Shown here in pieces: positions 3,182 to 64,000 of a stretch of 64,000 bases of DNA; the first letter of the stretch is position 1, and each line of letters begins with the position of its first letter. The notes beneath the pieces were generated by a model. It was not told the DNA's origin. It was given only the letters and a program-made list of their open reading frames with translations, and did not search any database. Position numbers and translations under genes: made by a program. Origin of the DNA: Takakia lepidozioides (taxonomy: Eukaryota; Plantae; Bryophyta); assembly GCA_030704615.1 (NCBI GenBank), contig CM060734.1:43896001-43960000 (forward strand), given 5' to 3'.

Positions 3182-3320
3182 AGATTACCAGATGTCATTC
3201 TGAATACTGCCCCTGCCCTGGTGGACATGTATGCCAAATGTGGGTGCATTGGGGATGCCAAGGGAGTGTTCAACACTATGGCTGAACGAGATGTGGTGTC
3301 GTGGAGTGTGATGCTTGCAG
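3182..3320 (+). pseudogene. PPR fragment interrupted by MULE insertion
   Basis: DVILNT..ALVDMYAKCGCIGDAKGVFNTMAERDVVSWSVMLAG. The PPR sequence resumes at 15233 (tgcttgcagggtatgca). Confidence 0.85.
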
Positions 3321-3728
3321 GGGGGGGGGGGTGCTATTCCGTGAGCCTGGAGGCGTGAGCCTATGAGCCCAGGAAAGCGTGAGCCCAGCACAGGCTCACG
3401 CCACGTCAGCATGCAAACAATGCCTATTTCCGCGGATGTCACCTATTTCCGAGTGGTGTCACCTATTTCCGCGGGTTGATGTGGGGAGAATTGACAATTG
3501 AGAACAAAGTGGTTTGTTTGTTTTTGCAATGTACTCAAGTCTGTGAGGTCCACAAAACAACAAATATATTGAAGGAACAATCCGGGCAGTCCATGCAACC
3601 CCCATCTCCAACAATAGTTTGGAACCATGAATGTGAATTCCACGCACACATTGCAAAGAGGACAATAAGGACACACAACCATCCCATTTCAAATTTGTCC
3701 CAGAATTAAACCAAAAGAATACTTCATA

Positions 3729-6700
3729 TCAAGTGTCGCAGTCATCACAATCAGTGTCCACCTCCTGTGCTATGTCATCTACAAAGATTCTGGCCCCAAC
3801 ACCACGTGTTCTACGAAGGCCATCGCAAGGTGGACTCTGAGTGCCATGAACGGACATGCTTGCTGCGAGTGCCTCCGCATAGACAGGTAGCACACAAGAC
3901 CGAGGAGGACTGAAAACAAGTCCAAATAGGTGTGATAGCCCAGGAGGGCAAGTGGAAGCACGCGGACTCCTACACATGTCCACAAAATCCCATTTTTAAC
4001 ACAATGATGCAATGCACAAGTCCAACGAAGAGGATGTCTCCCATGTGCACTTTGCCTCAAGAACAGCGATTCTCGATATTGAAACAACAATGCAAGCATG
4101 CACAGGTTGAACTTACTCACAGGCAAAGTCGGAGTCCAGCTCCTTGTCAGAAGTCTCCTCTGTACCAGTATCAGCGGGACGGGGCTTCGGAAGGACCTGA
4201 GAAGTGTGTCCACCCAAACCCATCAGGAGGTTCTTGTAAATCTCAGCATCCCCTTCAATCCCAAAGACATGTCGCGCACTGGCCTTGCAAGCGTGGTACG
4301 AAGCACCTGCAGTGGAATAGAATGAAGTAAGCAGACATTGAAGACACATTCGGAACGGTGGAAAGTGCTGAAAGTGCAAGCTCAATCAAACCTCATGAAA
4401 TGTGAATGTTGAAGAGACGAACCTGTGCCCATCGACAAATCCAGAACTCTGGCGTCTGTGTAGGTGCAGCACTCCACAATCGTTTGAATGAAAGCCGGGC
4501 TCCTCTCCCTCGCCCCTCTCCAAGGAACCCCATTCCCCCTTCGCAAGCACAAGTTGCTGTCGACGTAGTTGTGATGCATGTCATCCGTGGGAGGATCTGT
4601 CCTGTCATCTATGAACTTGCCCCCGTGAGTGATGGCAAACTCCGTAATGCCGGCCGGAGTCGTTGGTGGATGCACCCGGATGAGACAAACAGCTTCAAAC
4701 AGACGAGTCTGCGAACATGACATCCACAAGGAACTAAGAACCAAAATAAAATCGGGCCCCTACATATGAGTTCGAGCGACCTATACAACACAATCCCAGA
4801 ACAAAAAAGAAGAGGAAGAAGAAGGGAAACTCACCATCTCTCCCGGACGATCCCCCTTCGTAAGGTACATGCTGTTCACACAATTCCATGTCTTCACGAC
4901 TCTCATGCCCAAGGCTTTCAAATAGCTGGCAAGGGCACGGCGACACCGAACATCGATGGACTGGATGAGAACCAAAACACCTGCATCGGAAAGGAAGAAG
5001 TTGCAAAAGGAAAAAACCCACCGCCAGTAGCGCTCATCAAATGCATTCCAACCCGGACAAGCACCCGATGGAGGGATATCCGGGACTGCCAACCCATCAG
5101 GGATGTCCAAGATGATGAGTTCCGCTGCATATGGCTTCTCCTTCCCGTTCACCCACGATTTGGTCATTTTAGCCTGCAAACAAAAATACAATGGAATTCT
5201 GACAAGTTTATAAACGATCCATGCCCACAGCAGACAAAGAGAGCAGAAGCCACAGACCCAAAGAGAACACGCACCGTGCTGAGGAACTCGACAATCCTCT
5301 CCCACACTGGTGATGGCTCGCCCTTGTAATCAGATTTCTTCGACTCCATCATGGCAAGGAACCTGACGTTGGCAATCTCCAACCTGGTTGGACGAATGAC
5401 CCTCGTGGGATGTTCCACTGCATGGTACGGGTCCTTGGGATCAACCACCCCCTTGTTTTTTCTCCCGGATCCCCTACCATGCGGTGGAGTCTGCTGGACA
5501 TGCTCCACAGGGCCAATAGCTGCAACACTTCCCTGCCCTTGTGCCACCTTCCCTCTACCCCTTCCCTTCCCCACAACACCAGCAACATCTTTTCCCTTTG
5601 CCTTTCTTCCTCTACCCGGGGTATCCTGAGCGGGAGGCTCCTTCTCTGCAAGAGTCCTCAGATTACGCTCATGAATGTCGAGGTCCGCTGCTGCGGCAGT
5701 GGCTGCAATACGGTCATTCTCTCTCCTCAAAGACAACTCTACAGCTGGGGTCTCTGAAGGAGGGCAATCCAAATACCAACCACAAGAAGAAAGATGGTCT
5801 GGGCCCCAGTCATGCAAGATCCCAGCAGTGAACATGGTCTGGTTGCCAGCAGGGACAAGCCAAAGGTCCACGAAATCTGGATGTTTGTCCAAGCAATTCT
5901 CTTCCAAGAGAACAAACCTAATGTACCTGCAGGAACAGACACAGCCTCATTTTCCAGTGCACATATTGTGTCCCAGCTTTTTCAACACACCAGGAAGACC
6001 CCCTTAAACAGTATGCCACACAACACATTGCAACCACAACACAAGTAAAGAGTGCAAGGGTGTGCACCTGTAAAGGCATCGTTTCCAGGCTTCCTCTCCT
6101 TTTTCCTGCTGGTCAAGCTCATTTGTTCGACTGATGCCACCCTCCTTGCTGAACTCTCTAAAGAAACCAGAGTGCCACACTGTGGCTCTCCATTTCCTCA
6201 TGTAAGCTTCGAAGGAGACCTTCGGAGCTGTCATAGTGATGCCATAGTCAGCCAGCTGAGTATGCAGAACCGATCGGGCCCTTTCTTCCAACTGCAAAAC
6301 AATTGAAATGGAAGAATGAACCCAAAAACAGTCACAGCAAATGTAAGAGGCAATGGGAAGAGAAGGACAGGAAAAGAGAAAAGAAAGTGAGATACGAGAG
6401 GACATCACACCTGGCTCCAGTAAGTGGCCTTGTGAAGCCAGGTGTCCAGCACATTGTCACTGACAGGAACGACACGCTGGGTCTTCTTCTCTTTCTCTGG
6501 CCTTGGGAACATGTGGGTATCCCTAATTGTGGGATCGGAGTTCCATATCTGTAGCCACTTCACCTTCTGTTCAGAAGACACGACGGCGGTAGACAACCTG
6601 TGCAACTTCTCCTGGGCCATCTCCGGCTTGCCTGGCTTGTTATAATGGTTTTTTATCTCCAGGAGAAACTGCGGCCCGAATGATGGGTCGGCCATTCTCA

Positions 6701-7841
6701 ACTGCTTCCCAAAAGCACTCATTATTGTCCTTCTTGTAGCGTTCATCTCCTTCTGGATGTGACTTTCAACCCCCTTTGCTGTCCTTCTCTCCTCAGGGGT
6801 AGAGCTATAGTATTCCAGTTTGCCACGCTCCCCTGCATCTGCAATGTCTTGCTGCAAGGGAATGCAAGAGAGTTGCATCAATCCAAGGTCAAGGGAGACA
6901 GACAGAAACAAACATGTGGAAGCAGGAATATGGAAAGGCCAGATGAAGGAAGATGTATCTCACCGTGTACATGTACTCCATGAAAGCCTCACGGGTCAAC
7001 GAGTACCATGTTTCCGAAGTCTTGGAGCTTTCGCATTTCTTATACATCTCTGCCGAAAGGATGGTCTTGAAGTTGGTCAAGGGCATCTGCCCGATCCTTT
7101 GTATCCTATACAGTGTGTGAACCAGACTCGTTTTGACATGCGATGTCTCCGTCCCTCTGCAGAATGATATCTGAATTTCAGAATGTAATTCAAGGACTTG
7201 AATCAAGGAAGAACGGAACCAGAAGTGCAACATGTACAATGAGAAACCAACCTATTCACATCATTCATTGTCGTCAGAAGACCCATCATGTTGTCGTCAC
7301 AATCAAGCACCATCGATCGAACAGAGTAATGCCACTCTTCCTCCTGTGAGTGCAGCCTCCCAATGACAGCCATCCATGCAAGCAACCGGTGGTTGCCATC
7401 CCAAACGTGAAACATCTTCCCCGAGAATACCTGGGTGGAAGGTTTCCTGGAGAGAAGAAGTTCGAAGGATTCGTTCACCTGTCTCCAAATGGGGTCCCAG
7501 GAGTCGACGATTGACTCATCCACAAGGAGCTCGTTACCTCTAGAATCCCTAGTAGAAACGTAAAAGACTGCGGATCCATCCAAATACCCATGAACAAACT
7601 CGGCCTCCAGCTTGAGAATGTCTTTGACAAGGGGTGGACGAACGACGGGCATGGAAACCAACCTACACATGGGAATCTTCAACCTCCCACCAGGAGCAAG
7701 CATACTTTGAACCACAAGCTGAGAGTTCACCTTTTGACCCCCCAGCATCTCAGCGGCTTTGCTTTCATAAAACTCATCGTCAACATCAACTATGGTCTCC
7801 TTCCCCTGACCCTGAGGGACCTCATCCGCCACACTTTGCAT
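3729..7841 (-). CDS. Transposon-encoded protein, ~1051 aa: ParB/Srx-like N-terminal domain, unknown middle region, beta-class DNA N6-adenine/N4-cytosine methyltransferase-like domain
   Basis: Nine predicted exons (7841-7252, 7156-6964, 6851-6411, 6291-6068, 5926-5275, 5173-4835, 4708-4423, 4306-4117, 3969-3729), all GT-AG, with consistent phases and no stops. Motifs: FHVWDGNHRLLAW (core at 7386-7400); ELIILDIPDG (motif IV-like, core at 5093-5107); RERSPAFIQTIVECCT..DARVLDLSMGTG|ASYHACKASARHVFGIEGDAEIY (motifs X/I/II). Intron positions are mirrored in the second copy. The start codon and last acceptor are uncertain. Confidence 0.82.
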
Positions 7842-7989
7842 TTTCTCCTGCAAGGTTGTTCACTCAAATTCTTATAAGAGAGGAATGAAACGTCGACTAA
7901 TGCATGAAAAAGTGGGATCAAACAGGTAAGTGTTCTTTGAGCTGCTAGATAAGTGTTCATTGATCCTCACGGACCTGCCCTATGTTCCC

Positions 7990-10657
7990 GATTTTCACAG
8001 GGAAAGAACATTGAAAAGTTCTGCTCAAACAGTGTGCATTGCCGCACACTATTTGAGCTGGCAGTAAAGGATTCATTTCATCCTCAGATATGTGCCCATG
8101 AGGGCCGAAGGTTGCGCCCTTCAATATTGATATGTTCTGCCTAAACAGTGTGCGGTTCCGCACACTGTTTGAGCTGACAGTGAAGGGTTCATTTTATCCC
8201 CAGAAATGTTACACTGAAGACCAAATTTTGCACCCTAAAACATTGAAATGTTCAGCTCAAACAGTGTGCGTTGCCGCACACTGTTTGGGCTGACAGTGAA
8301 GGGTTCATTTCATCCTCACATAGGTGCCCCTGAAGTCCAAATTTTGCACCCAGAAACATTGAAATGTTCTTCTCAAACAGTGTGCGTTGCCGCACACTGT
8401 TTGGGCTGACAGTGAAGGGTTCATTTCATCCTCAAACAGGTGCCCCTGAAGTCCAAATTTTGCACCCAGAAACATTGAAATGTTCAGCTCAAACAGTGTG
8501 CGTTGCCGCACACTATTTGGGCTGACAGTGAAGGGTTCATTTCATCCTATTATAGGTGCCCCTGAAGTCCAAATTTTGCACCCTGAAACATTGAAATGTT
8601 CAGCTCAAACAGTGTGCGTTGCCGCACACTGTCTGAGCTGGCAGTGAAGGGTTCATTTCACCCTAAGATAGGTGCCCCTGAACTCCAAATTTTGCACCCT
8701 GAAACATTGAAATGTTAAGCTCAAACAGTGTGCGTTGCCGCACACTGTCTGAGCTGGCAGTGAAGGGTTCATTTCACCCTCAGATAACAGACAGCAAGAC
8801 CAAATTTTGCACCCTAAAACATTGAAAAGATCTGCTCAAACAGTGTGCGTTGCCGCACACTGTTTCAGCTGGTTGTGAAGGGTTCATTTCAACCTCAGAT
8901 AACATACCCTGAAGACCAAATTTTGCACCCTAAAACATTGAAATGTTCAGCTCAAACAGTGTGCGTTGCCGCACACTGTTTGGGCTGACAGTGAAGGGTT
9001 CATTTCATCCTCAAACAGGTCACCCTGAAGTCCAAATTTTGCACCCAGAAACATTGAAATGTTCAGCTCAAACAGTGTGCGTTGCCGCACACTGTCTGAG
9101 CTGGCAGTGAAGGGTTCATTTCACCCCCAGATAACAGACAGCAAGACCAAATTTTGCACCCTAAAACATTGAAAAGATCTGCTCAAACAGTGTGCGTTGC
9201 CGCACACTGTGTGAGCTGGTTGTGAAGGGTTCATTTCAACCTCAGATAACAGACAGCAAGACCAAATTTTGCACCCTAAAACATTGAAATGTTCAACTCA
9301 AACAGTGTGCGTTGCCGCACACTGTTTTGGCTGACAGTGAAGGGTTCATTTCATCCTCACATAGGTGCCCCTGAAATCCAAATTTTGCACCCTGAAACAT
9401 TGAAATGTTCAGCTCAAACAGTGTGCGTTGCCGCACACTGTTTGGGCTGACAGTGAAGGGTTCATTTCATCCTATTATAGGTGCCCCTGAAGTCCAAATT
9501 TTGCACCCTGAAACATTGAAATGTTCAGCTCAAAGAGTGTGCGTTGCCGCACATTGTCTGAGCTGGCAGTGAAGGGTTCATTTCACCCTAAGATAGGTGC
9601 CCCTGAAGTCCAAATTTTGCACCCTGAAACATTGAAATGTTCAGTTCAAACAGTGTGCGTTGCCGCACACTGTCTGAGCTGGCAGTGAAGGGTTCATTTC
9701 ACCCTCAGATAACAGACAGCAAGACCAAATTTTGCACCCTAAAACATTGAAATGTGCAGCTCAAACAGTGTGCGTTGCCGCACACTGTTTGGGCTGACAG
9801 TGAAGGGTTCATTTCATCCTCAAACAGGTCACCCTGAAGTCCAAATTTTGCACCCAGAAACATTGAAATGTTCAGCTCAAACAGTGTGCGTTGCCGCACA
9901 CTGTTTGGGCTGACAGTGAAGGGTTCATTTCATCCTCAAACAGGTGCCCCTGAAGTCCAAATTTTGCACCCAGAAACATTGAAATGTTCAGCTCAAACAG
10001 TGTGCGTTGCCGCACACTGCTTGGGCTGACAGTGAAGGGTTCATTTCATCCTATTATAGGTGCCCCTGATGTCCAAATTTTGCACCCTGAAACATTGAAA
10101 TGTTCAGCTCAAAAAGTGTGCGTTGCCGCACACTGTCTGAGCTGGCAGTGAAGGGTTCATTTCAACCTCAGATAACAGACAGCAAGACCAAATATTGCAC
10201 CCTAAAACATTGAAATGTTCAGCTCAAACAGTGTGCGTTGCCGCACACTGTTTGGGCTGACAGTGAAGGGTTCATTTCATCCTCACATAGGTGCCCCTGA
10301 AGTCCAAATTTTGCACCCAGAAACATTGAAATGTTCAGCTCAAACAGTGTGCGTTGCCGCACACCTCTTGGGCTGACAGTGAAGGGTTCATTTCATCCTA
10401 TTATAGGTGCCCCTGAAGTCCAAATTTTGCACCCTGAAACATTGAAATGTTCAGCTCAAACAGTGTACGTTGCCGCACACTGTCTGAGCTGGCAGTGAAG
10501 GGTTCATTTCACCCTCAGATAACAGACAGCAAGACCAAATTTTGCACCCTAAAACATTGAAATGTTCAGCTCAAACAGTGTGCGTTGCCGCACACTGTTT
10601 GGGCTGACAGTGAAAGGTTCATTTCATCCTCACATAGGTGCCCCTGCAGTCCAAATT
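7990..10657. repeat. Tandem array of 23 units of 115-116 bp, each containing a ~40-bp palindrome
   Basis: The AAACAGTG arm segment starts at 8027, 8143, 8259, 8375, 8491, 8607, 8723, 8838, 8954, 9070, 9185, 9300, 9416, 9532, 9648, 9763, 9879, 9995, 10111, 10226, 10342, 10458 and 10573. Consensus CAGCTCAAACAGTGTGCG-TTGC-CGCACACTGTTTGAGCTG (18-bp arms; most units have 1-2 mismatches). Confidence 0.97.
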
Positions 10658-11235
10658 CGAATGTGCCGTAGAAATGTAGTGCTTTTTCAATTCCGAGCAG
10701 TTCTTCTAGATTCGCAATAATTGTTATGCTTCACATATGCATCCACGTGTGTTGTACTGCATGCCCTGTGGTTTTTTTTATGCCGTGACCGTCCCCATGG
10801 GGTCATTCGGTATAAAGGATTTTGTCGGATATGACCATGTGTTGCACACATTCGTGCGAGGTATCTCTTGGAGTGTCAGTGTTTGTTCTGTGCTATTCTG
10901 GCGCAACACAATCTCATTACAATCGGATCTTCTTGTTTACTGCTCTCCAGGGTTGTTGCCGTCATTTCATAATGGATGGTTTCATGTCATTTTCAGGGTT
11001 TGTTTTCCATCCAAAAACAGCACGGCTTCTTGTGGCTCTGGTCTTTCAAAACGGTTTTTCTGGTTGGTGGGAGGTGAAGGTGCACGTCATCCCTACATCC
11101 TTGGCATGCATCGCCGGCAGCCTTTGGTTTGGTGCTACCCTTGTTGACCTTAGTTTGCTGGTGGTATTTCCACTTTCGATAATTACGGGCTCTCAGTTCG
11201 AGGATTCCGTTCTGAATCGCAAGTTTCGTTCAGTG

Positions 11236-14200
11236 ATGGAAAACATGTCGAGGGAGCGAGATGCACTCGCTCGATTCCATTCCAATGCAGGTACTCTTCC
11301 ACTGACTGCCACTGCAGACGACGATGGGTATGCAGTTGTTCATGAGGATGAGCTGGTTACAGTGTTCCCGCTGGAGTTGGGTTCTCTGCTTGTTCAGAAA
11401 GAGGTGTATGACGATGATGGGAATTTGGATTCTGGGCACTTGGAGAAACCTTTGGTTGGCGAGTGTGGAAGGAAGTGGAGAGTCCTTCCAGGAACATACC
11501 GTGTCCTTGGAAAAGAGAGAAGACAATCAGCAGGATCAGTCGTTACCCCTGGCACTGCAGCATCGGTCGTGCAACAGAAGGGCACAGTTCCTGTGAAACA
11601 AGAGGTGAGCACATCCACTACCTTCGTGACTCTTTCGGACTCGTCCTCGGAGGATGTTTCTGAGATTCCTCCGCCAGTGCAAACTCCCTTATTGCATGAT
11701 GACGAATTGCAAGAGATAACAAGTGTCATTCCAAAATTGAAAGCCCTCGCAGGTGTGCCTGGGTGCAAGAGCGAGCTACGTTTTGTTGATTGGGAGTCCC
11801 TTCCAGTGCAACGGGTTCAATACGTGCCAGCTCAGTTTGATGGGGACATCTTGTTTGAGCTCAACCCTCCCACGTCTTCCAGTGGACTGGCTGGGCTTCT
11901 GCAGGGCATGGACAAGAAACATGACGGACATCATTGGTGCAGGACAAAAACGTCGAACATCCATAACGACATTGGCTTGAAATTTCGGAGGTCGGTTTGC
12001 GTTGGGCATTGCAAGTGCCTGAATATTTCTTGCCCTCGGCTGAGAAACAGCGCTCAGCCAAACGAAAGTGAGTGGGAAGGTGTGCCCCTGAATCCTTTCA
12101 CCCCAGGGCTTGCACCTCCCAAGACCAATACTTTTGTGTGCAGGTTCTGCAAACTTTCCCCGTCCTGTGTTTCTGTTTGCCACGCTCGTATGTATCAGGT
12201 GGCACATCGATGCAAGACAATGACTCGTGCCTGCATTCATATGGGTGCACACGAGCATCTTGTGTCCAAAGGGAGTTGCAGGGATAGCGTGGACATCGCT
12301 AGAAATCTACTGAAGCAAGAGTTCCACAATGCCCCTTGTGCAACACCTTCTGCTATAGCGCTTGCAGCTAGCAAGGCATTCCTGGAAAAACACATACTGG
12401 GTGAAGGGGATGCGACACAGCCAATGCTGGATGCAGATTCCCTTGAGGCAGTCATGGACCATTTCTCCATGTTGAGCTCTCCCAATATTCGAAACCAGGT
12501 GAATGCACTCAGAATGGGCACAGGCACTGCTGGATTCATGGACAACATTATGGACCTCAAACGGAGGAGTCGCTATGAATTCATTCAAAACAGTATGTTC
12601 CCTGGCCAGGGCTCGTCCAAAGTGTATTTGTTCAAGATGTCCGCTGTGGGCCAAGGCAGTGGTGTGAGCATTGTCCGCCGAATGCAACCTGGAGGAGATT
12701 TGGCTAAATGTTGGTTAATGTTTGATCACTGCAAACGGGTGAAGGGTTGGACAACCATGGCGTGCCATGTGTATGATCCAGCGTACCAGCGTGTGCTCTC
12801 CATAGCAATTTGTGATATGCAGTCGGAGGACACTGAATCCCAGATGCTCATGTGGAATTCCCTCCTGGCCGTCATGCAGCGCAATGGAATACAGAACACA
12901 AATTTTGCGGGCTTCATGGCTGATAGTGCACAGGCAAATTTCAATGCAGTGCGGCGCGTGTTTGGTTCGGGGGATCCTAGGGTCCCAATGGAAAATAGGG
13001 AGCGCACATGCCTCTTCCATTGGAGTCAATCTCTGGCACGTCATACAAAGCGCTGCATTCGCCCTGACCTTCAGTTGGAGCATAGAAGGCTCTGTCTGAA
13101 GTACAAGAATGCCACCTCAATGGGAGAAGCTGAGAGCACTTACCAGGCAATCCGGGCTTGGTGGTTCTCCTCTGGTGCTGCTACAGGTATCCACCTGAAG
13201 GAGTTGGAGGACTGGTTGGTTTTCTGGCACTTCAGGTACAGACAGTGGGGAGCTTTCATGACGACGGTAAGCCTCACAAGTTTTCCTTAAACACAAATTG
13301 CACTTTGCATCGTGCCTGTTCATTTGGGGTTGTTCGATTGTCACTTGAAGAACCTCTACCATTTCTTTTCCTTCCTCACATTTCCATGCAATGCCTCCTG
13401 CAGGACATGTCCTTGGAGGACTTGGCCGACATGTCATCGTGTAATTTGGCAGAGACTGTTCACAATGCCTGGATGCAACAGTCTACCAAAGCAGGTCGTG
13501 ACTTGTATGTGGCCACTGCTGATGACATGGTGCGGGCACTTACACAACAAACCAGGTACCGCAATTTTCTGATGGGACGGGGTGGAGGGAAGGGCCCCGA
13601 TACGACTTTGTTGATGCTAAGGGCTGCGAGTAGGTCCGGAGACCCGTCAAAGATGGCCAGAGCTCTAAACAGGTGCACTGAAGGCTCCCCTCTGCAATCC
13701 AGGCTCCCCCATTTGGAAGGCGAGGAAAGATTTGGATCATGCAAAAGGAAATTAAACACTCTTCCAGGGTCAGATGGAGATTCCCATAGGCCAGACAGGT
13801 CAATTTCTCTGTGCCAAAGGTGTCTCCAGTGCAGACTAAGTCCTGTGCCGGCCCCTTCCCAGGTGGGTCCTCCTCCTGTGGAGCAGGTGCAGAACATGCA
13901 AGCATAGCAGCGGAAATCCCATTGGAGGAGGTGGTGGCCATGGTGCAGGAATCTGATTGCATTGATAGTGACTGGCATATAGAACGCACCCCACCGGGAT
14001 CTAGAGTGGCTTGCATGGCAATTCGGACCCCCTCATTCAAGAAATGCAAATCAAAAATATGCAAAGGCTCCAGGGGGAACTCCAGCTCCAACATTCACAG
14101 GGTTGTTCCGACCTTACCATAGTGGGGAGTCAAGAGCACAAGTTTTGGTTCTGCCCAGACGATATGGCACGATGCGTGAAGGGAACAGTTCGTCCTTCCG

Positions 14201-14814
14201 TGATAATGAAGCCCCCTCCCCCCGCAATTTGGCCTGTGAAAATTGGGACATCGCTGTCCTCAACCGAGATAAGCATGCTGGAGGAGGGAGGGTTTTGTCT
14301 TGCACGGTCCCGGGTGGTGCCCTTATGCACTGTCGGCACAGATGTGCCACATGCTCCGACAATGCCTCCACCCGGTGCCGACTCCCACCCAACAAAAAGA
14401 GATGGAAAAACAGTGCGCCGTGTTGCTTCGGGTGCAGATCACGAATGCAAGATGGAATCGGCTAGAATTTTGCAGGCTAGGGTGACTCGTATCACCGAAG
14501 TCCCTTCCCCGGGGTATGGACGGATTTACACAGTGCTGTCAATTGGCTCAGTTCTTCATGCCAAAGAATATCAGGTTACCATCGGGAATTTCCCATCGTG
14601 CACTTGTCCGGATTTTGTAACAATGCGTGAGGGCGCTCTCGGCATGAGAGGGAAGTGGGTCCCCTGCAAGCATCAATATTACATATACCTTGTAATTATG
14701 TGTTGCGACGGTAAGAGAGACCAATTCATTCACCAAGCCACACTAGGCTACGGAGAAGTCATCACCCTTCTGCAGCGGGACACCTCGCGTAGAGCTCCGC
14801 CAACTTCTCTTTGA
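11236..14814 (+). CDS. MULE (MuDR-type) transposase with GCM/WRKY-like zinc domain, DDE core and SWIM finger; C-terminal part frameshifted
   Basis: Long ORF with WLMFDHCK (D1), FMADSAQA (D2) and CLFHW (CxxH). Intron 13267-13403 is followed by CNLAETVHNAW (E). SWIM finger CTCPDF...PCKH lies at ~14600-14680. Apparent frameshifts near 13798 and 14070-14130. The start ATG is uncertain. Confidence 0.85.
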
Positions 14815-15232
14815 ACACATACGAGCCATGCCCGCTTCCCATGCTGGTTTCCAGGTTGCCGTGTGAAGACTTTTCATTTTATGACAAACATATACATTTC
14901 GTTCACGGAACCAGGGCAAATGCACTTGCGATTCATTGTAAGCGTCTCTCTGTGAATTGAAATAAACTGTGTCAATCATTCTGAGCTCAAATCTGCCATA
15001 TTTACATATTCCTCTTTTTTGGCACGCATTGCAGACATGGTGCATGGTGGCCTCCTTTGTTTTGTCCACGGTAATAGGCCCTCTTCCTGCAATCCTCGCC
15101 TATAGGACCTGCTTCTCCAGCAGATTCATGCCGCTCACGCTTCCCTGAAGCGTGAGCTCAGCTCACGCTTCAAAGCTTCAACGTGAGCTCAGCTCCCAGG
15201 CTCACGGGGCTGGGCTCACGCCGTAGCTACGC

Positions 15233-16055
15233 TGCTTGCAGGGTATGCACAACAGGGGTGCGGGATGGAGGCTCCAACCTATGAGCAAATGTTGGGGGAA
15301 GGGGTGAAGCCCGCCGACATAAGGTTTGTGTGTGTTTGCAGTGTGTTTGGCAGCCCTGGAAAAGGGCAAAGAGATCCCTGCAGGTGACATGATCAAATCT
15401 GCAATTGTTCCAGATGTCATCCTGAACACTGCTCTGGTGGCCATGTATGCCAAATATGGTAGCATTGAGGATGCAAGGGAGTGTTCAACACTATGGCTGA
15501 ATGAGATGTGGTGTTGTGGAATGTGATGCTTGCAGGGTGTGCAGAGCAGGGACACTGTATGGGGCTTTGGAGACCTGAAAGCAAATGATGGGGGAAGGGG
15601 TGAAGTTCGACCACATCATGTTTGTGTGCATTTGCAGTGCGTGTGCAAGCCTGGCAGCCCTGGAAAAGGGCATCGGAGGTGCATGATTGCATCACCAAAG
15701 TTGGAAATGTACTAGATGGATCAATAACTACAAGAAACCTGCATGGGTAGATGGTCAACTAGAAGCTGCAGCAGCAGTGGCACAATGATATACTCAGGCA
15801 CTGGTAATGAAGGCACCTTCTTCAACACATTTCACCCTGTTTTTCCCTCTTATTAGAATCGGCTCTAAATTTTCATGTTGAATTCTGCAAGTTAGCTGGT
15901 TGAGTGAGCCTTTGATAGTTTGGAGCGACTTTGACATGGTACTGCCAATGTGACAACAGGGAAGTATCCAGAAACAGGTAACAGCTGAGATGAGGAGAAG
16001 CTGTGGAATGAATACTTTTCTGACCCCAGTCAATGGTGGGACAACCGAGGCAAAA
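15233..16055 (+). pseudogene. PPR pseudogene continuation plus the recurrent WVDGQLE module
   Basis: LAALEKGKE..GDMIKSAIVPDVILNTALVAMYAKYGSIEDA with frameshifts; continues the 3182-3320 fragment. Confidence 0.82.
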
Positions 16056-16705
16056 ACTTCATGAACGTAAGGCATGAGTGGCTGATTGTTTCATTTCGAA
16101 CCTGATATGCTTTGAGCCTGGTTCCGGAGATTTATCTCCAGACCTGCAATATGCTTTTGTGATGAGTTTACAATCTGCATATATGGTGGTAATTGTTATA
16201 TATCAAACCAAGGTTCTTTCCTAAATGTGAATGACCTGGAAACCTTGTTAGAAAGATGAATGGCTTACGAATTGGACTATGTATGGCTTGACCCATGGAT
16301 TAGATTTCAAAGGATTAGAACATGTGTTAGGGCTTTAATACTGAATGGATGTGGGACATTGCTAGGGCGCCAGAGCATGATATTCCATGCATTCACGCCA
16401 TTGGATGCCAAACTTTTTTTGGCACGTTGGACCAAGGTTTGTATGCGTTCACGAACTGCCGACCTTGCTCGTTGCCCGGTTGACCTTATTTTCCGTAATT
16501 GCTAACTTTGTAGGATGGAGGGGCTTGTGTTAGGCTGCAACTGGATGCATTGATGGCAATGATGTTGGGAATGTCAGCAACCGCCCCTCCTCCAACTATT
16601 ATCCCAATATGTACTGTTATTGAACCTTGCGATTCCGACGCAGGCTTGGGAGGCAAGACTGCTACGGAGAAGGTGGTTTGTGCACCTTCTTTGTCCTTGT
16701 ATTAC

Positions 16706-19700
16706 CAGTGTTGTGCGGGTACCCGCTTAGGCGGGTTGGAACCGGCGGTTCTGGTTCCGGTTCCTGGGAATCAGTATTGGAACCGGAACGGCGCCCATGA
16801 ACCGGAACCGGAACCGGGGGAGCAGGGACGAGCCGGTTCCAGAACCGGAACCGGCGGGTGCGGGTTTTTCCAGGAACCGGCTTGGAACTGGAACTGGGGG
16901 TCAGTGGCGGTTCCGAATTCGGTTCCCGCACTAGGGTTTTTTTTTTTCCATGATCTGTCGTCTCTCACGCGCGATCTGTTGCAGTAACGCGACTTCAGTG
17001 CGGGGGAGGGAGCAGCGCGGGAGAAGGGATCACATCAGTGCACCAGCGCGTGGGGGAAGGAGCAGCGCATAACAAGGCGGGAGGAGGGATCAGATCAGCG
17101 CACGGGGGAGGGAGCAGTGTAGCAGCGCGGGGCGAGGTATCAACATTTTTTTTTTTTTGGTTTGTTTTGTTTGGTTTTCCTGCTTCTGTGGTCTCGCACC
17201 TTCCACCTACGGTATGTGCTGTGCACAATAGCGCGAGCATCAACGCGGGGGAGGGAGCAGCGCCTCAGCGCGTGGGGGAGACCGGAACAGTGCAGGGGGG
17301 GAGGTAGCAGCGTAGGCATCGGAGGTTTTTTTTTTTTGTTTTTTTTTCCCACGTTGTATCGTCTCTCACCTTCTCCTACTGCAGCAGGGCGAGCATCAAC
17401 GCGGGGGGGGGGGGGGAGGGAGCAGCCGGGTACGAGTATAGGGGAGGGAGCATCGCAGTCAGTACAGCAACCTCCGTGGAGGTTAGCCCTCCATTTTTTT
17501 TTTTTGGTCCTTTTATGGCAAAATTGTGCAGCCGAGAAGCTTGTGCTAGGGCCTTTAGCCCTCCCTCTCTCTCTCTCTTCTTCCTTTCATGGCAAGTTAA
17601 TGGAACCAAGTGCTAGGCCCTTTTAGCCCTCATTTTTTTTTTTTTCCTTGAATGGCAAAGTCATGCAACCAAGTAGCTTGGCTGTCTACTGTAGCCAGTG
17701 TCGTATGTTAGCATTAGGAGATCTGAAAATGGTCAATGTACATGCTCTCTTGGCTGGTCTACTGTTGCCAATGGCTTATGATAGCATTAGGAAATGTGAA
17801 AGAGGTCTACCTAGTGTGCATTTGATTGCCACTCATGACACCTGAAAACTGAATTTCCACATTTGAGGATCTGTCATGGTGCCTAAAGGGGGTGAATGAC
17901 TGAAATGACCTATCTTATATTTATATATATGTGTTCTACTTTGAATGTATGAGTGCTTGTGCCACCCAAGAGCTTGTATGTATGCCCTTGCTTTAATATT
18001 TGGCTCTACCTGCGGGATTGGGTATTTACTGTCATAAGACCAGCCCCCCTATTTAATGTCATAAAACCAGCCCCCCTATGTGCAGTGTTGTACAGTTAAC
18101 TAGGCTCTCACATTGGTATAATTATATTACTAATTTGCATTGTATGAATGTTTAAGCGTGAATTGGGTTGGATTGGGATTAATTTGATTCAGGGAGTGTA
18201 TCCAGCCATTTGCAACGTATGCAGCCCAATATCTTTGAAGAACTGGAGAGAGGTGTTGTTCATGACACCAATGTCAACAATGCGGGAGCTATGGAAGCTT
18301 GCCCTACGCTTGGAGGAGCTATATGTGCATCGTCTTCTTCATCAATTCCTCTCACTTCAGCGGTCGGTGGGTCTTCCACAATATCACAGTATTCAAGCAA
18401 CTCAATGTCCGAGGAAGAGCAGTTTTCCACCCTACGCAAGCAACGTGATTTTTGGAAACCTTACAATCGCACTGCTTCGTCATGGGCATTTTATGCAGTT
18501 GCCAGTGTTTTGTCATCCTGCTCCTGTGTTTGAAAAGATGTCAGGATGTATGACTTACAACAAAGACCATGGAAACTCTGTTCTTTACAAGCATGTGAAT
18601 CAGAAACATGGGGCTTTGGTTAGTAAGTGGATTGAAATGGAAAAAGATGGGCTGGATGCTTGTAGACCTGCGAAGAAGATGCTTGGCCCTACCCCAGGGA
18701 ACATATCTTCTTTCTTTGGCAGTCGAACTACATACAAGAAAGATGATGAACAGCAGAAAATGTTCAACGAGGATTTGGTCCTGTTCATTACAAAAGAGTT
18801 GTTGCCATTGTCTTTGGTCGAATCTCCATGGCTACGAAGGGTAGTGGGGAGACAAAATGATCGTCTAGTTTTTCCCTCTCGACGCACACATGTGAATGAG
18901 ACGCTCCCATCACTGGCAGCAAAAACACAAGACTTGTACATGTCCCCATTGATATCCAATTGTGTAACTTATACTGTCAGTTTTGATTTGTGGATGTCAA
19001 GAGGAGGAATAGATACTTTTGTCATCATAGTGCACTTTCTTAATGAGCAATGGGAACCATGTCATGTGACATTGGAAATGTTTGAGGCACCTGATACATC
19101 GAGGGCCTCGTGGACCCCCCCCAACCGCAACTCGGTGTGCGGGGCTCCACCTAGTGAGCGCCTCCGCCTCCTTGACAAGTGAATGACCTTTTGACTAAGT
19201 ATGGTTTGAATTCGCGCATCATAGCTTATGTCAAAGATGAAGGAGGTAATTTGGGTACTTTGACTGCAGCTTTGAATGCAGTTGTGTCTTGTGCCCTATT
19301 GGGACTGTCTGCACCATTTGTGGGAAGTTGCTTTGGACATGCAATGTCCAAGTGTTGTCAGTATGCCACGCGGACTGATGCAAAGGTGTGCATGGATATG
19401 AGGGTTGTGTCTATAAAGGATGCTCAATCAGAGTTGCAGAAGACCATCACTTGGACCAAGAATAGTGGAAAGGGAAGGCAAGAATGGAATGCAGCATGTG
19501 TTGATAGTGGCATTCATCCTCGCAAGCTGAAGACTCCAGTGAAAACCAGGTTTGCTTCCAAAGTGATCATCTTTCAAGAAACTTTGGAATTTTGGCAAGT
19601 CATCATTACTTGTTATTCTAGGCAAACTTCACTGTCTTTGCAATCTCGCATACCAAGCCCACAAGTGTGGGCAATTGCAAAGTCTATTTCCATGGTTCTC

Positions 19701-20911: not shown

Positions 20912-21589
20912 GTTTTTACCCCGCATACAAGTATTGCAGGGATGTTGCCTTTGCCAATACCAGCCCAGGTATTGCAAAGTGTGTGGGCTCTATTGTAGAC
21001 AAAGTAGGAGATGCATTGACACTCCTTATTAGCTCAACAAATTTGACGTGCCGCTAGATTTTGATATGTTTCATGGTCATGTAGGCAGCAAGCAACTGTT
21101 CAACCATCTGATTCCTCTCCCCACATGAGCATCCTGTTGTTGAAGTGGGCCACATGGGCCAGCAAGCCAAGTTGAAGAAAATAACTGCCCCAATGCGCAT
21201 TATACAGAACCTTTGGATGCCCCATGTTTGTAGTAATGTGGTTGGTGGCATGGCCCACGGTCCCCACGACGGCGCATGGGACCCCCCCAAAGCAGCCTGC
21301 CGTCCACCATCAACTACCCCCCTTCAATCATCTCATAATTGGGCACCCTCTTCTTTTGCTGTGAAAGTTGAGCGTGATTGTGGACATGCAGTACAAAGCC
21401 TGCCTGCTTTCCCTTATGTGTGCCTAAGCTCATACATCTATTCATTCGCTAAAGATGGTCCCTAGCTACACAGGGAGAGCCTTTGGGTCAGACAGGGTGT
21501 GGATACCGAGGCTGCACAACACTGAGCCTGCCTCAACATGTTTTGGATCTTCTCATTCACAAAAAGCTGAGGGTTCCCACATCTACTCA

Positions 21590-26100: not shown

Positions 26101-26431
26101 GAGCAGGTGGAGAATGAATGTGTATGGCACGAGACATTGGCAAGTGAGATTCGAGAACATCACAGGTTCATGAGTTGGGATACTTTCATTCTGCACAGAA
26201 TTCGAAAACAAGTTAGCTGTAGCAGAAAATTCATAGACCACATGGCAAAGTCTCAAATTCTATATTTGAATCCTACCTTCTCGGGTTTATCTGGCTTTAG
26301 TTAGTAGACACATCCTTGCGCGAGTCCTGCATTTGGTGTGAGCTAATCCAACAGGAGTTTGAGAGCCTACAAACTACAGGTAGATTCCAACACAAGCTGT
26401 TTTGGAATGTTCAAAAGCTCAGGGTTCACAC

Positions 26432-58465: not shown

Positions 58466-59000
58466 GGGGGGAATGCTTGCGCGTGAGCCTGGCCGCGTGA
58501 GCCTGTGAGCCTGTGAGCCTGGCTAGGCTCACGCCACGTCAGCAAGCTTCCATGTGTTCAGGCCGTAATTCCGTGCTTACCCCCCCCTATTACCGCGGAT
58601 CAGCTGTCGCCTATGTCCTAATTTTTTATCCCTCTTCAAGGCCCCCACATGAATATTCTTTGTGGCCGAGAACAATGGCAGGTTTGCGGATGAATTATGA
58701 TTGAGGTCATGGCTTTGGAATGAGGAGATCGTCCACTAGAGAACTGAATATTAAAACCAAACATTTTTTTTGGGCAAAGCAGTACATTCATTCCAACACA
58801 CAATCATTTTTCAATTCCGCAATCCGAAGACCTATTTTAGGCAATCCCCAACTGTACTTACGGGAACGCGCAAAGAACTTGAAAAACAGTTTGGAGATGG
58901 AAGCAAAACCAAAATACAATTTATTGAGCCTCGGTACTTGAACCTAAAGAAATATTGGAGGTTTCAGAGGAACCACTTCCAGAGTGTACAGCAATATCAT

Positions 59001-62000
59001 CTATGAATACAGCAGCACATCCATGACGTTTTTTTTTTCCTCGACCTTCATGGAGATGCGAGTAGTACAGGTTTGTTCGGATAATACCCGTGCGCAAGCT
59101 TCCGCGTAAACCGGCAAGCGGTTGGATCTAGGGGGACTCGGGGACATGTAGTATCCTTGGAAACCGAAAGGTGTCTGCTGATTCGATGACTGGTGCTGAA
59201 CTCTGCAAAGCAAGAAGAGGAATGTGGTATATATTAACATCCAGATATAGACAACGGAAGCCCACTTTCTCGAATGGGAACGACACAAAATGTAACATAT
59301 TTTGCACACGTACACAAGAACTTACTCACACTCAAAATCGGAGTCCACGTCCAGATCCTCGTCAGGCGCTTCGGGCTCCTCCAGAAGTCCCTCTGTGGAT
59401 GGGGCAGAAGTAGTGCCCGACTCAAGCTGACGAAGCTCGCTTGAGAAGAGCTCTGTATCAGCTTCCATGCCGAAGAAGTGCCTTCCGGCGCTCTTGCAAG
59501 CATGAAAACATGCTCCTGCAAATCCAAAAAGAACGAGAAATAAAAACCAGGATTCCCTAAGGTCACTGCCCATATGTCAAACACAATGTGAAGGGCCCCA
59601 CTGTGCCCATAGACAAGTCAACCACTCGTCCACCATGACGGCTGCATGTCTCCACCAAAGTCTGCATGAAAGCTGGAGATTTCTCCCGTGCACCTCTCCA
59701 AGGGACACCATTCGTCCTTTTCATAGTCCGACCCGAGTCGACGTAATTGAAGATAACATCATCCTCCACAGGCTCGCAGGTGGGGTCAATGTGAGCTGCA
59801 AGGTCCCTCAACTGAAACTCAGCAACACCAGCAGGAAGAGTGTCCGTCCGCCTCACCAGGCACAAAGCTTCGAACACTCGTGTCTGTCATTAATCACGAA
59901 GAGGGAATGAGACAGAAGTCATAACCCACCATTTTGATTTACCGGAAAAAACACATCAATTGAAAGGAACCAACTCACTTTGCCCCGGGAACTCGCCCTT
60001 CGTAAGAGGCAGAGTATTGATGCATGTCCAAGTTTTGATGACACGAAACCCGGAAGCTTTCATGTAGCTGAAAAGAGTTCTTCGAGCCGACATGTCCTTT
60101 GACTGCATGAGAAGAAGAGCCCCCGAGTCCGAAAGGAACTTGTTGCTGAACGAGAAAGCCCACTGCCAGTAACGAGAATCCGATTTGTTCCAAGTCGGGG
60201 TCGAATTGGAAGGAAACACATCAGGGACAGCAAAACCGTCAGGAATGTCCAGCACCACAAGGTCAGTCGCGTATGCCTGTTGAACTCCATTCACCCATTC
60301 CGGACTTTTTGTGACCTACAGCCAAAAACATGAGACATTGTAAGAAGCCCAATCCAAATCTAACAGGAGATCAATCCCCTGGACAAGCCACAACAAGCTG
60401 CCAAACACAATTATTCATACAACAGTTTAGACATAAGTTTTCACCTGAGTGAGGAACGAAACAAGCATGTCCCACGATTTCGAGGGCACCCCTTTGAATG
60501 TGGACTTCCTCGACTCATCATTGAAAAAACTTTCATTCAGCACCTTACGATTGAACTGGCCCAAAACCCTGGAGGGATGTTCTCTCGCCTCGAAAACTTG
60601 CTCCCTGGACTTTGAAGTTCTCCTATCCCTCCTTGCAGGAGAAGGCTGTCTTTCAGGAACCTCTGACGGTCCCTGTCCTTGCGGAGCTGCACTTTTCCCT
60701 TCCCCTTCGGATCCCCGACAACCTTCCCTTTCTTTAGGTAGCTTTTTTGCTCTTTGCAGCCAAAGCCGAAATGATTTGTCCTGGATGTCTTTCTCAGCCA
60801 ATGGGGCAATCGCTGCGGCATTGTCGTTCAGGTTTCTCAAAACAACTTCATCATGTGTCCTGTTTGGCAGGTCGAGGTACCACCCACAGTCTCGGAAGTG
60901 CGCCCTGCTCCAGTCTTTGGCAATACCAGCCGTGTACATTGTCTTGTCATTGGAGGGGTCAGCCCATGAATAGATGAAGTCTGGGTCATCGCTAAGGTAC
61001 TTTCCCGGTATGAGGATATGATACATATACCTGAATCACACACAAAAAACCAGACAGTCATTCGATCGAAAACGAAAAAGAACACACATCCGGAAAAAGA
61101 TATTGAAATGCAGGAAGGCAACACTGAGAATTCTACTTTTGAAATCCCGAATCAACCTTGCGTTGACGCAATGTTCATTCGAGCAGAAATGGGGAACACC
61201 AAATGATAATGTTGTATTAATAGAGACAACGACTGAGAAGCGCAATTCAACATTGCTTCAACGCAAGGTTGTTTTTCATTCAGAGAGGAAATGGAAAACA
61301 CTGCCTGAAAACTACCATCAGACTATGTATGGGTGCGGATATTCAACATTGCGTTGGCGCAATGTTGAAATCCTCTGTTGAAAACACATGTCAATGCTAT
61401 CTCATAATCATAAGTTTCCTACAATTGTATTGAAATCGGGGGATGGCTACGGGGAATTTCCAGCAATCCATACCGCCAAACAACCTTGCGTCAACGCAAG
61501 GCTGTTTGTTGGTACAGTGAAAGTTGTAAATAGCATTTCAAACCGACTCCAAACAGTCTTATGTTCATCTTGGCAGCATTGGAACTGGATTTGAACTACC
61601 CAAAACAACAGGAAAAGCTACATAGCCTGCCACTTAATCAACCTTGCGTTGACGCAAGGCTGATTTTCCTATCAGTTTATCCCCTTTCACATTCAGAAAA
61701 ACGGCATTATGGGATACTTAGGTATAGGTAAGGGAAACCAGGACAAAAGGGAAACAACCTTGCGTTAACGCAATGTTGCTCGACTGCACATGCAGAGCCC
61801 TCAGAGATCTCGCAAAGCACTGCAAATTCGCAATTCTTTATGGAAAGAACGACACAAGATTGCAGAAACATTCCCTTCAAGCACCAATTTTGATTCAAGG
61901 AGGTCACACCTGTACAACACTCGCTTCATTGCTTGCTCGCTTGTACTGGTTTTTGAATTCGTAAGACTGGAGATTCCTTTCTCTTTCTCAAACTCCCTGA

Positions 62001-63615
62001 AGAAGCAGTTGTTCCAGACAGCGAGCTTCCATCTCCTGATATAGGCCTCCAGTGTGATCCGGGGGCAAGCCATCTGGATTTTGTAGTCTGCCATCGACTC
62101 AGCAAGTGCAGCCACTGCGCGTTTTTCTAACTGCAACAAGAAAGCTCGTAAGAATTTTCAGAGGTTACGGAGCATCAAAAATGTCTGAAAATGGTTTGGT
62201 TCAAACCTTACCTGGCTCCAGAATGTGGCTTTGTGTAGCCACTGGTCGAATGTATGGTCGCTAACAACTCTTATTGCTTGTGTCTTCGGGTCCCTCTCTG
62301 GAGTTGGGAACATGTTCGTGTCTCTCACAAGAGGATCCGAATTCCATATCTCCAACCACCTGATTTTGGTTGCATTGTCCACCATTGAAATGGAAAGGCG
62401 ATGTAGTTTCTCTTGAGTCATTTCTGGCTTGGAGCCATACTTATCATAGTGTGCTTTCACCTGTTCCAGAAATTCCGTGCCAAGACCTGGGTCTGCTATC
62501 CGGATCTGTTTGTCGAATGCACTCATGAGGTTCTTCCTTTGATTTTTCATCTCGAACTTCATAATGTCCTCAAGCCCAGTTGCAGACCGCTGCTCTTCTG
62601 TGTGGGAATCATAGTACTCTGCTTTCGCCTTCAATCCAGTTTCTGCTATTTCTTGCTGCATACATAACAGGTAAAAAGAATCAAAGACTGCAATTTCATC
62701 ACAAAATTTGCAGTATTAACAGGCAAAAGGTGTCAAAAAGCTTACAGTGTACATGTACTCAAGAAAAGCCTCCCTTGTCAAGCTGTACCATGTGCTTGTC
62801 TTCTTCTCAGCACACCTCTTCATCTGCTGAGGACTGAGCACGTTCGTGAATGACTCCAGTGGCATCAGCCCCTACCTTCTGGATGCGGAATAGAGTGTGG
62901 CACAGATTGGTCGTCACATGAGATGTTTCATTGGACCTGGAAAAAAACCTTCAACTCATAAGATGATTTCAAATTGTCGAAACAAGTAACAGACACAAAG
63001 TTGGAAACTTACTTGTTTATGTCGTGCATGGCTGTCAAGAGCTGCGTGACACGTCCTTTGTGATCGAGAACCATGGAAACCACGCTCCAGTGCCATTCGA
63101 TGTCGTCCGAGTGCAAGCTTGAAATGTAATCCATCCAGGCAAGCAGTCTGTGGTTCCCATCCCAGACAAAAAACATCTTTCCCATGAATGCTTTTTGTGG
63201 AGGCCTTTTTGGACAGCTTGAACTCGAACTCCCTGTTTACATCCCGCCAGCATGCATCCCAACCTTGCTCAATGTCCTCTGTTACAAGACACTCCTCTCC
63301 TTTCGTGTTCATAGTGGATACGTAGAACACTGCTGATCCCTTGACATAGCCGTGAACAAAGTCGTCTTCAACTTCGTTATATCGTTCCTCAAGCCGGTCG
63401 AACAGCGGGCATGGAGATCATCCTGCACAGCGGAATGACCAGGTTTCCGCCCGGAACCTCCATCGACAGAATCACCTTCGACGAGTTCACTTTTTGCCCA
63501 CCAATTATCTCTCGGCCTTGTCTTCATAGTTTCCCTCCAATGCATCTTCCTCACCTTCACCTTCTGACGCGGCCAAATCTTCCCCTCGGATTTCCTTTTT
63601 CTTTTCCTCTGCACA
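59001..63615 (-). pseudogene. Homolog of the ParB-MTase gene, with apparent frameshifts
   Basis: MFFVWDGNHRLLAW (~63135-63175), QEKLHRLS..WLEIWNSDP..WLHKATFWSQ, DLVVLDIPDG, REKSPAFMQTLVETCS..GGRVVDLSMGT|(G)ACFHACKSAGRHFFGMEADTELF, SPPRS..LPVYAEA. Intron positions match copy 1. Frameshifts occur in the ParB exon and at two splice donors. Confidence 0.85.
61152..61778. repeat. Six 24-bp palindromes CAAC(C/A)TTGCG-TTGA-CGCAA(G/T)GTTG inside an intron
   Basis: Copies start at 61153, 61248, 61344, 61481, 61639 and 61755, in both loop orientations (TTGA/TCAA). Confidence 0.92.
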
Positions 63616-63655
63616 GAATGAATTATCTGTGAGTGACAGATGAGCACCCATGGAT

Positions 63656-63967
63656 CAACATTGCTTTGACGCAAGGTTGATTGATGGGGATGTAGTTTAG
63701 ACTGAAAAGCATACAGGAAAAACTTTTCAAGCAAAAAAGTGCTTTGCGTTGACGCAGGGTTCTTTTGGGAGCTTCAACTAATCAACTTTCCCTACCTTAC
63801 ATTTCAGGATATGAGAGATCGGACGCCTCCATTGAACAAAAAACTCATCAAAACCAGCCTTGCGTCAACGCAATGTTGATTCCATGTGCGGCATCTGTTC
63901 GTTTCACTAGAAGTTCTATCATACACAATGGAGGTAGGCATCAACCTTGCGTTGACGCGCAAGGTTG
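63656..63967. repeat. Four more copies of the same palindrome upstream of the gene (probable start of the array of element 2)
   Basis: Copies at ~63656, ~63740, 63855 and 63942, spaced 85-115 bp. The position is equivalent to the 7990-10657 array. Confidence 0.88.
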
Positions 63968-64000
63968 ATTGCGAGCTCTCGGATCGGTGTTGAACAACAC

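Follow-up and report, generated by a model that had tools for sequence, protein, structure and literature searches.

A predicted methylase-fold protein with an altered catalytic motif, carried by a DNA transposon family of the moss Takakia lepidozioides

The genome of the moss Takakia lepidozioides contains a large DNA transposon whose cargo gene ends in a predicted DNA amino-methyltransferase fold with an altered catalytic motif. The element (copy 1; 3321..15232, ~11.9 kb) lies in the window, the whole 64,000-nucleotide stretch analysed here (assembly GCA_030704615.1, contig CM060734.1, positions 43,896,001 to 43,960,000, forward strand), and a related element, copy 2, enters at the right end. 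The question that the locus raises is what a methylase-like protein of this kind would do for a transposon. We propose, tentatively and as something a little short of an even chance, that it is a pseudo-methylase accessory factor that would bind palindromes of its own element and help the element to escape silencing; the proposal draws on the sequence, a predicted fold and analogies with published systems.

The cargo gene and its predicted methylase fold

Six-frame translation of 3700-7900, with the exons joined, gives an intact cargo gene of nine exons on the minus strand (3729-7841), encoding 1,051 amino acids; each of the eight introns has GT-AG ends, and the joined frame stays open through all 1,051 codons. 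Exon 1 (7252..7841), with a presumed ATG, encodes a putative ParB-like domain with the sequence VWDGNHR at 7406-7386, and is 40% identical to a relative, P0001. It is followed by exon 2 (6964..7156), exon 3 (6411..6851), which encodes a conserved middle region related to the N-termini of proteins from the moss Ceratodon, and exon 4 (6068..6291). Exon 5 (5275..5926) contains a conserved block, a low-complexity linker and, from about 5390, what is likely the start of the methylase fold, its first strand and helix. Exon 6 (4835..5173) contributes motif IV, DIPD (5107-5096), an invariant W-N and the motif VI-like FLSDAGVLVL; exon 7 (4423..4708) the motif X region WRGARERSP (RGARERSP at 4519-4496) and motif I as far as a split Gly codon; and exon 8 (4117..4306) the end of motif I, motif II (GIEGD, 4262-4248) and an acidic tail, with a GT donor at its end. 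Exon 9 (3729..3969) includes the stop codon and an SPP..LP.YAE block that is also present in copy 2 and in the Ceratodon proteins.

A first-pass annotation of the window had placed the methylase domain at 4117..5173. These limits coincide with exons 6-8, but 4117 is a splice donor with the ninth exon (3969-3729) beyond it, and the fold begins upstream of 5173, in exon 5, so that the domain is the C-terminal part of a far longer gene. The motifs quoted in that annotation were all recovered at their minus-strand positions, with DLSMGTG completed across the 4423/4306 junction and LDIPDG present in copy 2 as well. The junction itself is backed by homology: the very Gly codon of motif I that is split here is interrupted by a phase-1 GT-AG intron in a moss-like relative at a metagenome locus (L001), three gene models of Ceratodon and the Logan protein P0090 continue past the junction residue into motif II, and unspliced gene calls of eight other clusters end or diverge at the motif I Gly. 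No splice joint was seen in two sequencing runs guessed to be RNA, in which the gene is covered by only 7 and 6 short pieces and which are uninformative on expression. The only named relatives of the cargo protein are from Ceratodon purpureus, where four models (P0065, P0152, P0174 and P0175; 758-810 aa, with a DAPE motif) start at the level of exon 3; their lack of the N-terminal domain reflects either truncated annotation or a genuine shorter form.

A profile built from exon 6 of both copies was searched against 1.84 billion entries and recovered 162 representatives at E≤0.001, of which the best 150 were listed; each representative stands for a cluster at 50% identity, and the family thus comprises at least 162 clusters. 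For the fold we used a model of P0090, computed from a 115-sequence alignment and 26-29% identical to the window protein in exons 6-7. The model has a mean pLDDT of 66.6 (mostly 68-94 over residues 291-550), and its residues 262-556 superpose on M.BceJIV with a Z-score of 19.9 (rmsd 2.8 Å, 220 residues aligned), with further matches to CcrM (Z 19.7), MboIIA (19.2), PvuII (18.9) and N4CMT (18.9). Foldseek returned M1.HpyAVI (E 2.8e-12), a language-model search placed the family with PF01555 clusters at 0.95, and an alignment of the family profile with CcrM spans the domain (E 0.0026) and sets DIPE against DPPY. Scores against Pfam PF01555 fall below the gathering cut-off (best 20.8 bits, for P0090, versus 26.7), and the single cargo exons gave no match to it. 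Because of the 162 relatives at this threshold and the fold match at Z 19.9, the resemblance is not attributable to chance. We therefore regard the family as having a predicted bacterial beta-class DNA amino-methyltransferase fold, a permuted Rossmann, as the first-pass annotation had suggested from the motif order; the order IV ... X-I-II in the window protein is that of the beta-class PF01555 enzymes. A homodimer prediction for residues 258-558 of P0090, run without an alignment, scored 0.00 and is uninformative.

The fold and motif order are thus those of CcrM, M.BceJIV, M1.MboII, M.RsrI and M.PvuII, whereas the identity to bacterial beta-class enzymes is only 11-19%, DPPY is replaced by D-h-P-D/E, the Phe of FxGxG and the motif X His are lost, and the domain is fused into a spliced protein of 1,051 residues. 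No relative turned up when viral contigs and bacterial genomes were scanned by pattern. The best phage match is a Gordonia phage methylase (E 0.3, in motifs X-I-II only), and identity to bacterial and Marchantia enzymes is below 20%. Word-indexed searches with single exons were almost empty (0 of 154 and 1 of 336 candidates), and two further metagenome loci, L002 and L003, were dropped as relatives, each having a match of only 16 residues.

The most distinctive feature of the family is motif IV, which is DIPD in both copies instead of the canonical (D/N/S)-P-P-(Y/F/W). We counted residues in 140 rows, namely the best 150 of the 162 relatives less 10 with an incomplete motif IV. Position 4 is Asp or Glu in 111 of 140 and aromatic in four, with none of the aromatic cases among the 50 best matches (tallies: E 76, D 36, K 9, S 6, N 6, and others). 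Pro is never found at position 2 (0/140) and occupies position 3 in 117/141, while position 1 is D/N/S in 118/140 (Asp in 109, with Glu in 15). Replacement of the aromatic residue was claimed earlier as a conserved family trait from two copies, and these counts bear it out. In a tree of 142 rows, built with the motif columns excluded and rooted at the midpoint without an outgroup, the four aromatic cases fall in three separate places, each among non-aromatic neighbours, and parsimony assigns Asp/Glu to the midpoint root. A subgroup of some 14 relatives in the exon 6 alignment has E/D-Y-P-D/E/N, with a Tyr at position 2. The aromatic residue of canonical enzymes stacks the flipped target base (PMC7544214), and the Y107G change in the DPPY of HP0593 abolished activity (PMC3036652). 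Since the catalytic aromatic has been lost family-wide, the family likely no longer methylates DNA.

The cofactor site is altered as well. Alignment to CcrM and a phage methylase, in which 16 distinct family sequences cover both positions, shows that the Phe of motif I (F-x-G-x-G) is missing in 16/16, the window copy included, as is the His of motif X (HPxxKP), where G-[PAS]-[RK]-E is aligned instead; in N4CMT this His contacts the cofactor ribose (PMC10406627). The first Gly of motif I is kept in six of the 16 and lost in ten, the last Gly is kept in all 15 readable cases, and the motif II Glu in all eight sequences that reach it. Other residues have become nearly invariant: a Trp (142/147), an Asn (143/146) and an RG-x-x-E. 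The earlier statement that SAM-binding motifs are kept holds for the G-x-G and motif II Glu of the window copy, but not for the Phe of motif I or the His of motif X. Being among the more canonical members of the family in having both G-x-G and Glu, the window copy may retain residual SAM binding.

The domain is under purifying selection. The two cargo genes are 49% identical in amino acids over 914 codon pairs, and over 218 codons of the methylase domain dN is 0.40 and dS about 2.2, a ratio of ~0.18; this is a rough figure, because dS is near saturation and copy 2 is a pseudogene. Bootstrapped pN/pS between the copies is 0.35-0.53. A ratio near 1, which would have spoken against a functional domain, was not observed.

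The N-terminus is more difficult to place. The VWDGNHR of exon 1 is kept in copy 2 and in P0001, and we take it to be a ParB/Srx-like motif (DG-x-H/R-R), a label that the tools applied did not confirm: the N-terminus had no ParB match in Pfam, PHROGs, NCBIfam or PADLOC and no match among PDB sequences, tblastn against phages and plasmids gave only hits with E≥2, and P1 ParB did not align to it (probability 0.1%). The model of exon 1 has a pLDDT of 40, at which the best structural match (Z 4.1) is meaningless.

The transposon and its palindromes

Copy 1 is inserted in a PPR-derived host repeat, and its flanks match an empty site: contigs from other copies of the repeat join ~3305 to ~15233, that is, across the element. 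A 9-bp target-site duplication, TGCTTGCAG (3312..3320, plus strand), is repeated exactly at 15233..15241. The 5' end is a G run, because of which the 5' edge is uncertain by about 2 bases and the duplication can be read as 8-11 bp, a size that fits the 8-11-bp criterion for Mutator-like elements, among which elements without terminal inverted repeats exist (PMC6446971); an 8-bp reading, with the G-run and CTG ends, would also fit the KDZ termini listed for Ectocarpus (PMC12477816). No long terminal inverted repeat was found at the ends of copy 1, only short subterminal GTGAGC repeats, with four copies in both orientations on the left (3341..3400) and six on the right (15130..15220). The family is multi-copy in its host, with 8,456 contigs of one DNA run on the cargo gene and at most 38 sharing one variant.

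The transposase gene (11236..14814, plus strand, with one intron near 13267-13403) is transcribed divergently from the minus-strand cargo gene and encodes a putative DDE transposase, divergent and probably Mutator-like, with what may be a SWIM-like finger near its C-terminus. Its D/D/CxxH/E pattern is, we presume, Mutator-like; the Pfam scan gave no MULE and no KDZ match, and the match to Pfam SWIM is weak (E 0.0019, 18.1 bits, below the 19.6 cut-off). Relative to contigs of two other runs, the transposase of copy 1 is frameshifted near 13797. At L001, a frameshifted EnSpm/CACTA fragment (1136-1553; PF02992, E 5e-11 and 2e-13) lies directly downstream of the related cargo gene, with which it shares its strand. 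Either the family rides different transposon superfamilies, as it may, or the EnSpm fragment is a separate insertion.

Copy 2 is represented by its left part (58466..64000), which runs off the window; it has a G-run end and GTGAGC repeats, and lies in the same host repeat family. Its cargo gene (58920..63600, minus strand) has the same nine-exon layout, several frameshifts and DIPD.

Both elements contain palindromes with a common core, TGCG-N4-CGCA. Those of copy 1 form a tandem array of 23 units of 116 bp (8007..10657), each with an imperfect palindrome of ~42 bp centred on the core, whereas copy 2 has six dispersed 22-bp palindromes with the same core and different arms in intron 4 of its cargo gene (61154..61777) and three more upstream of the gene (63657..63877). 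The window has 28 exact matches to the core, of which 21 belong to the copy 1 array, while copy 2 has 5 within intron 4 and 2 upstream of its cargo gene; all 28 are in non-coding DNA of the elements, with none in exons or transposase; the 46,554 bases outside the elements have none (0.47 expected). In copy 2 the palindrome itself appears to be the repeated unit, since most of the spacers are unrelated to one another (similarity at p<0.05 in 2 of 21 pairs). In the copy 1 array, the two CG sites show one transition in 92 positions, and the array matched no Rfam family. Immediately 5' of the first coding exon of both cargo genes there is an acceptor-like site (7842-7860; ~63605), because of which an earlier upstream exon is possible; from their positions, the palindrome arrays may sit within the first intron of the cargo genes.

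Possible roles of the cargo protein

The accessory-factor proposal comprises three steps, in which our confidence declines. Without the aromatic residue a flipped A or C would be left unstacked, and it is probable that neither 6mA nor 4mC would be made. The protein would then bind the two-fold symmetric sites by means of its putative ParB-like N-terminal region and the methylase scaffold that it retains, which we judge somewhat better than an even prospect. Dense occupancy of 9-23 such sites might, finally, hinder host cytosine methylation or make the chromatin of the two divergent genes more open, in the manner of VANC on VANDAL elements; we put this step at slightly less than even. The precedents for the proposal are the EPPL motif of METTL14, the motif arrays of VANC and the arrays of Bostrychia PAG3. 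The CpG content of the elements is a weak hint in the same direction: at codon positions 3-1 the elements are less depleted of CpG (observed/expected 0.55) than other repeats are (0.33; p=0.027), two host genes having 0.72, and this milder depletion would suggest lighter methylation of the elements, although element age could explain it as well.

Several points weigh against the proposal. The CpG comparison comes from 13 reading frames in one window and is confounded by element age. Selective conservation of the array palindrome was considered and rejected, since its 42 columns have 25 distinct variants and the remaining 74 columns have 50. The ParB-like designation of the N-terminus is putative and leans on the architecture of published analogues, and the fold was computed for a relative, P0090, rather than for the spliced protein of the window. 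In the same two runs noted above, pieces of 62-69 nt in unrelated contigs span the ends of intron 7 unspliced; these are probably scraps of other copies. A DPPY-bearing sister group could be under-sampled, because the search profile was built from DIPD sequences. Some features would also fit a changed active site: D/N/S at motif IV position 1 in 118 of the 140, the near-invariant W-N and RG-x-x-E, and the retention of G-x-G and the motif II Glu in the window copy, motif II being acidic in 8/8.

These last features are the basis of an alternative in which the protein is an active enzyme with a new chemistry or substrate, a site formed by D-x-P-D/E, W-N and RG-x-x-E modifying the palindromes, RNA or protein. 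Purifying selection, the prevalence of Asp1 (109/140), Pro3 (117/141) and an acidic position 4 (111/140), the near-invariant W (142/147) and N (143/146), and the constancy of the last motif I Gly (15/15) and motif II Glu (8/8) would all be expected of such an enzyme, and the algal analogues described below have been proposed to modify their own elements (PMC12477816; bioRxiv 10.1101/2025.02.11.637652). We nonetheless consider it unlikely: position 4 drifts among E, D, K, S, N and others, position 1 is Glu in 15 cases, none of the 16 sequences has the motif I Phe or the motif X His, 10 of the 16 have lost the first Gly, and the parts of the literature on motif IV that were covered include no active amino-methylase with an acidic position 4. 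The first-pass annotation had offered altered chemistry and a dead SAM/DNA-binding module as options; because of the eroded SAM pocket and the drift at position 4, a dead DNA-binding module fits better.

A dead methylase could also serve transposition itself, in synapsis of the ends, transposase loading or target capture, or the palindromes might be bound by the transposase. Here the cargo gene is always in the context of an element, maize TnpA is needed for transposition, and a Mutator transposase can by itself activate its own copies (10.64898/2026.08.24.746577). We rate this explanation as no more probable than an active enzyme, because the palindromes are internal (in the array and intron 4), kilobases from ends that carry a different repeat, GTGAGC. 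One relative, moreover, adjoins an EnSpm transposase fragment, and the published analogues ride Sola1, Plavaka and Mutator elements; such an association with several transposase types argues for a transposase-independent role. The protein as the non-catalytic half of a heterodimer, bringing an active beta-class partner to the palindromes as METTL14 and MTA9 would suggest, seems to us very unlikely. In beta-class enzymes, recognition can indeed be the task of one subunit and catalysis that of another, and the motif of METTL14 is eroded to EPPL (PMC7544214), but there is no second methylase in the complete element copy 1 and no well-supported aromatic-bearing subgroup among the 140 motifs. Neutral decay of a passenger gene, or a model with wrongly joined exons, is hardly credible: the cargo gene of copy 2 and the transposase of copy 1 are frameshifted, and the exon junctions are drawn from splice signals and homology, but against this stand the 1,051 open codons, the eight GT-AG introns, the dN/dS of ~0.18, the 162 relatives, the motif I intron of L001 in the same phase, and the continuity of the Ceratodon models and P0090 across the site.

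A bolder version of the accessory-factor proposal is that a bacterial methylase was rebuilt, across a land-plant transposon family, as a targeted anti-silencing machine. A ParB-like clamp would load at the element's own palindromes and spread, and the altered D-x-P-E/W-N/RG-x-x-E pocket would capture or alter 5-methylcytosine, or melt the duplex as CcrM does, undoing silencing over kilobases. We regard this as improbable, more so than either an active enzyme or a transposition cofactor; a protein that spreads from a defined palindrome and lifts silencing would, if real, offer studies of plant epigenomes a compact means of targeting. More generally, the defeat of DNA-methylation silencing by transposons is known for few systems (VANC, TnpA), and the present family is an independent candidate assembled from prokaryotic parts. 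With at least 162 clusters, four Ceratodon gene models and candidate binding sites visible in the DNA, the question is directly testable. The family is also a caution that not every eukaryotic PF01555-like gene is a source of 6mA or 4mC.

The closest published analogues are the accessory genes of algal transposons, not the 4mC enzymes of Marchantia and rotifers. Sola1-1_Ec32 of Ectocarpus has a 1,104-aa ParB-like and N4/N6 methyltransferase gene opposite its transposase; the protein is proposed to bind the element that carries it and to modify that element, and comparable proteins are cited there from red and green algae (PMC12477816). The two systems share a spliced cargo gene of ~1,100 amino acids with a methylase-fold domain opposite the transposase of a large DNA transposon, and differ, as far as a comparison by description goes, in that Sola1-1_Ec32 is from a brown alga and has a Sola1 transposase and a predicted active methylase. 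In the Plavaka elements of Bostrychia, PAG2 combines a PF01555 methylase with SET and PAG3 a ParB-like domain with a 2OG oxygenase, and the accessory genes move among Plavaka and Mutator elements (bioRxiv 10.1101/2025.02.11.637652). Transposon cargo with methylase-type and ParB-like domains, the latter putative in Takakia, and tandem arrays of inverted repeats beside the gene are common to both; judged by description, this red alga is set apart in that the ParB-like and methylase domains are in separate genes.

The Marchantia MpDN4MT1a/b and rotifer N4CMT proteins are active host genes that keep SPPY (10.1101/2021.02.12.428880, PMC10406627, PMC8885841). They resemble the cargo family in being eukaryotic proteins with a beta-class fold, probably derived from prokaryotes, and N4CMT acts on transposons and tandem repeats; unlike the role proposed here, N4CMT silences transposons, SPPY is absent from the cargo family, and the 12% identity in the structural match gives no sign of direct kinship. 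The VANC system of Arabidopsis VANDAL elements is similar in having an accessory gene in a Mutator-type element without long terminal inverted repeats and family-specific motifs that are dense in non-coding parts. VANC motifs are short, asymmetric, in the same orientation, dense in introns and upstream regions and formed by tandem repetition (PMC5735166), whereas those described here are 22-42-bp palindromes, and the part of that source covered does not mention a methylase fold for VANC; the likeness would be one of function. Retention of an amino-methylase fold with an eroded catalytic motif is seen in METTL14 (EPPL) and likewise MTA9, which are host subunits with an active partner (PMC7544214), and in the methylase domains of DIRS1, which are also transposon-borne and judged inactive, but belong to retrotransposons and to a different, PCIF1-derived group (PMC4738411). 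Literature searches turned up no account of such cargo from a land plant, nor of the motif erosion, although subscription journals or supplements could hold one. ParB-methylase transposon cargo is already known from algae; the present family is marked by the family-wide loss of the catalytic motif and the element-specific palindromes.

The host repeat and neighbouring sequences

The high-copy repeat in which both elements are inserted, each at a CAG/GG junction, is decayed PPR coding sequence, present at 1440-2570, 3186-3320, 15233-16060 and 55260-58465, with Pfam PPR matches at 56486-57286. Both of the runs guessed to be RNA contain it in great abundance. A number of related repeats, their ends rich in GGAACC, occupy 16700-27300, and include reading frames at 18148-19754 that we take to resemble a hAT transposase, for which Pfam gave no match at E 0.01. 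A broken copia-type reverse transcriptase (RVT_2, E 9e-31) is located at 52084-53604. Ordinary host genes in the window are an intronless F-box/kelch-type gene (44995-46266) and a short gene for an LRR protein whose tail is rich in Gly (28764-29732).

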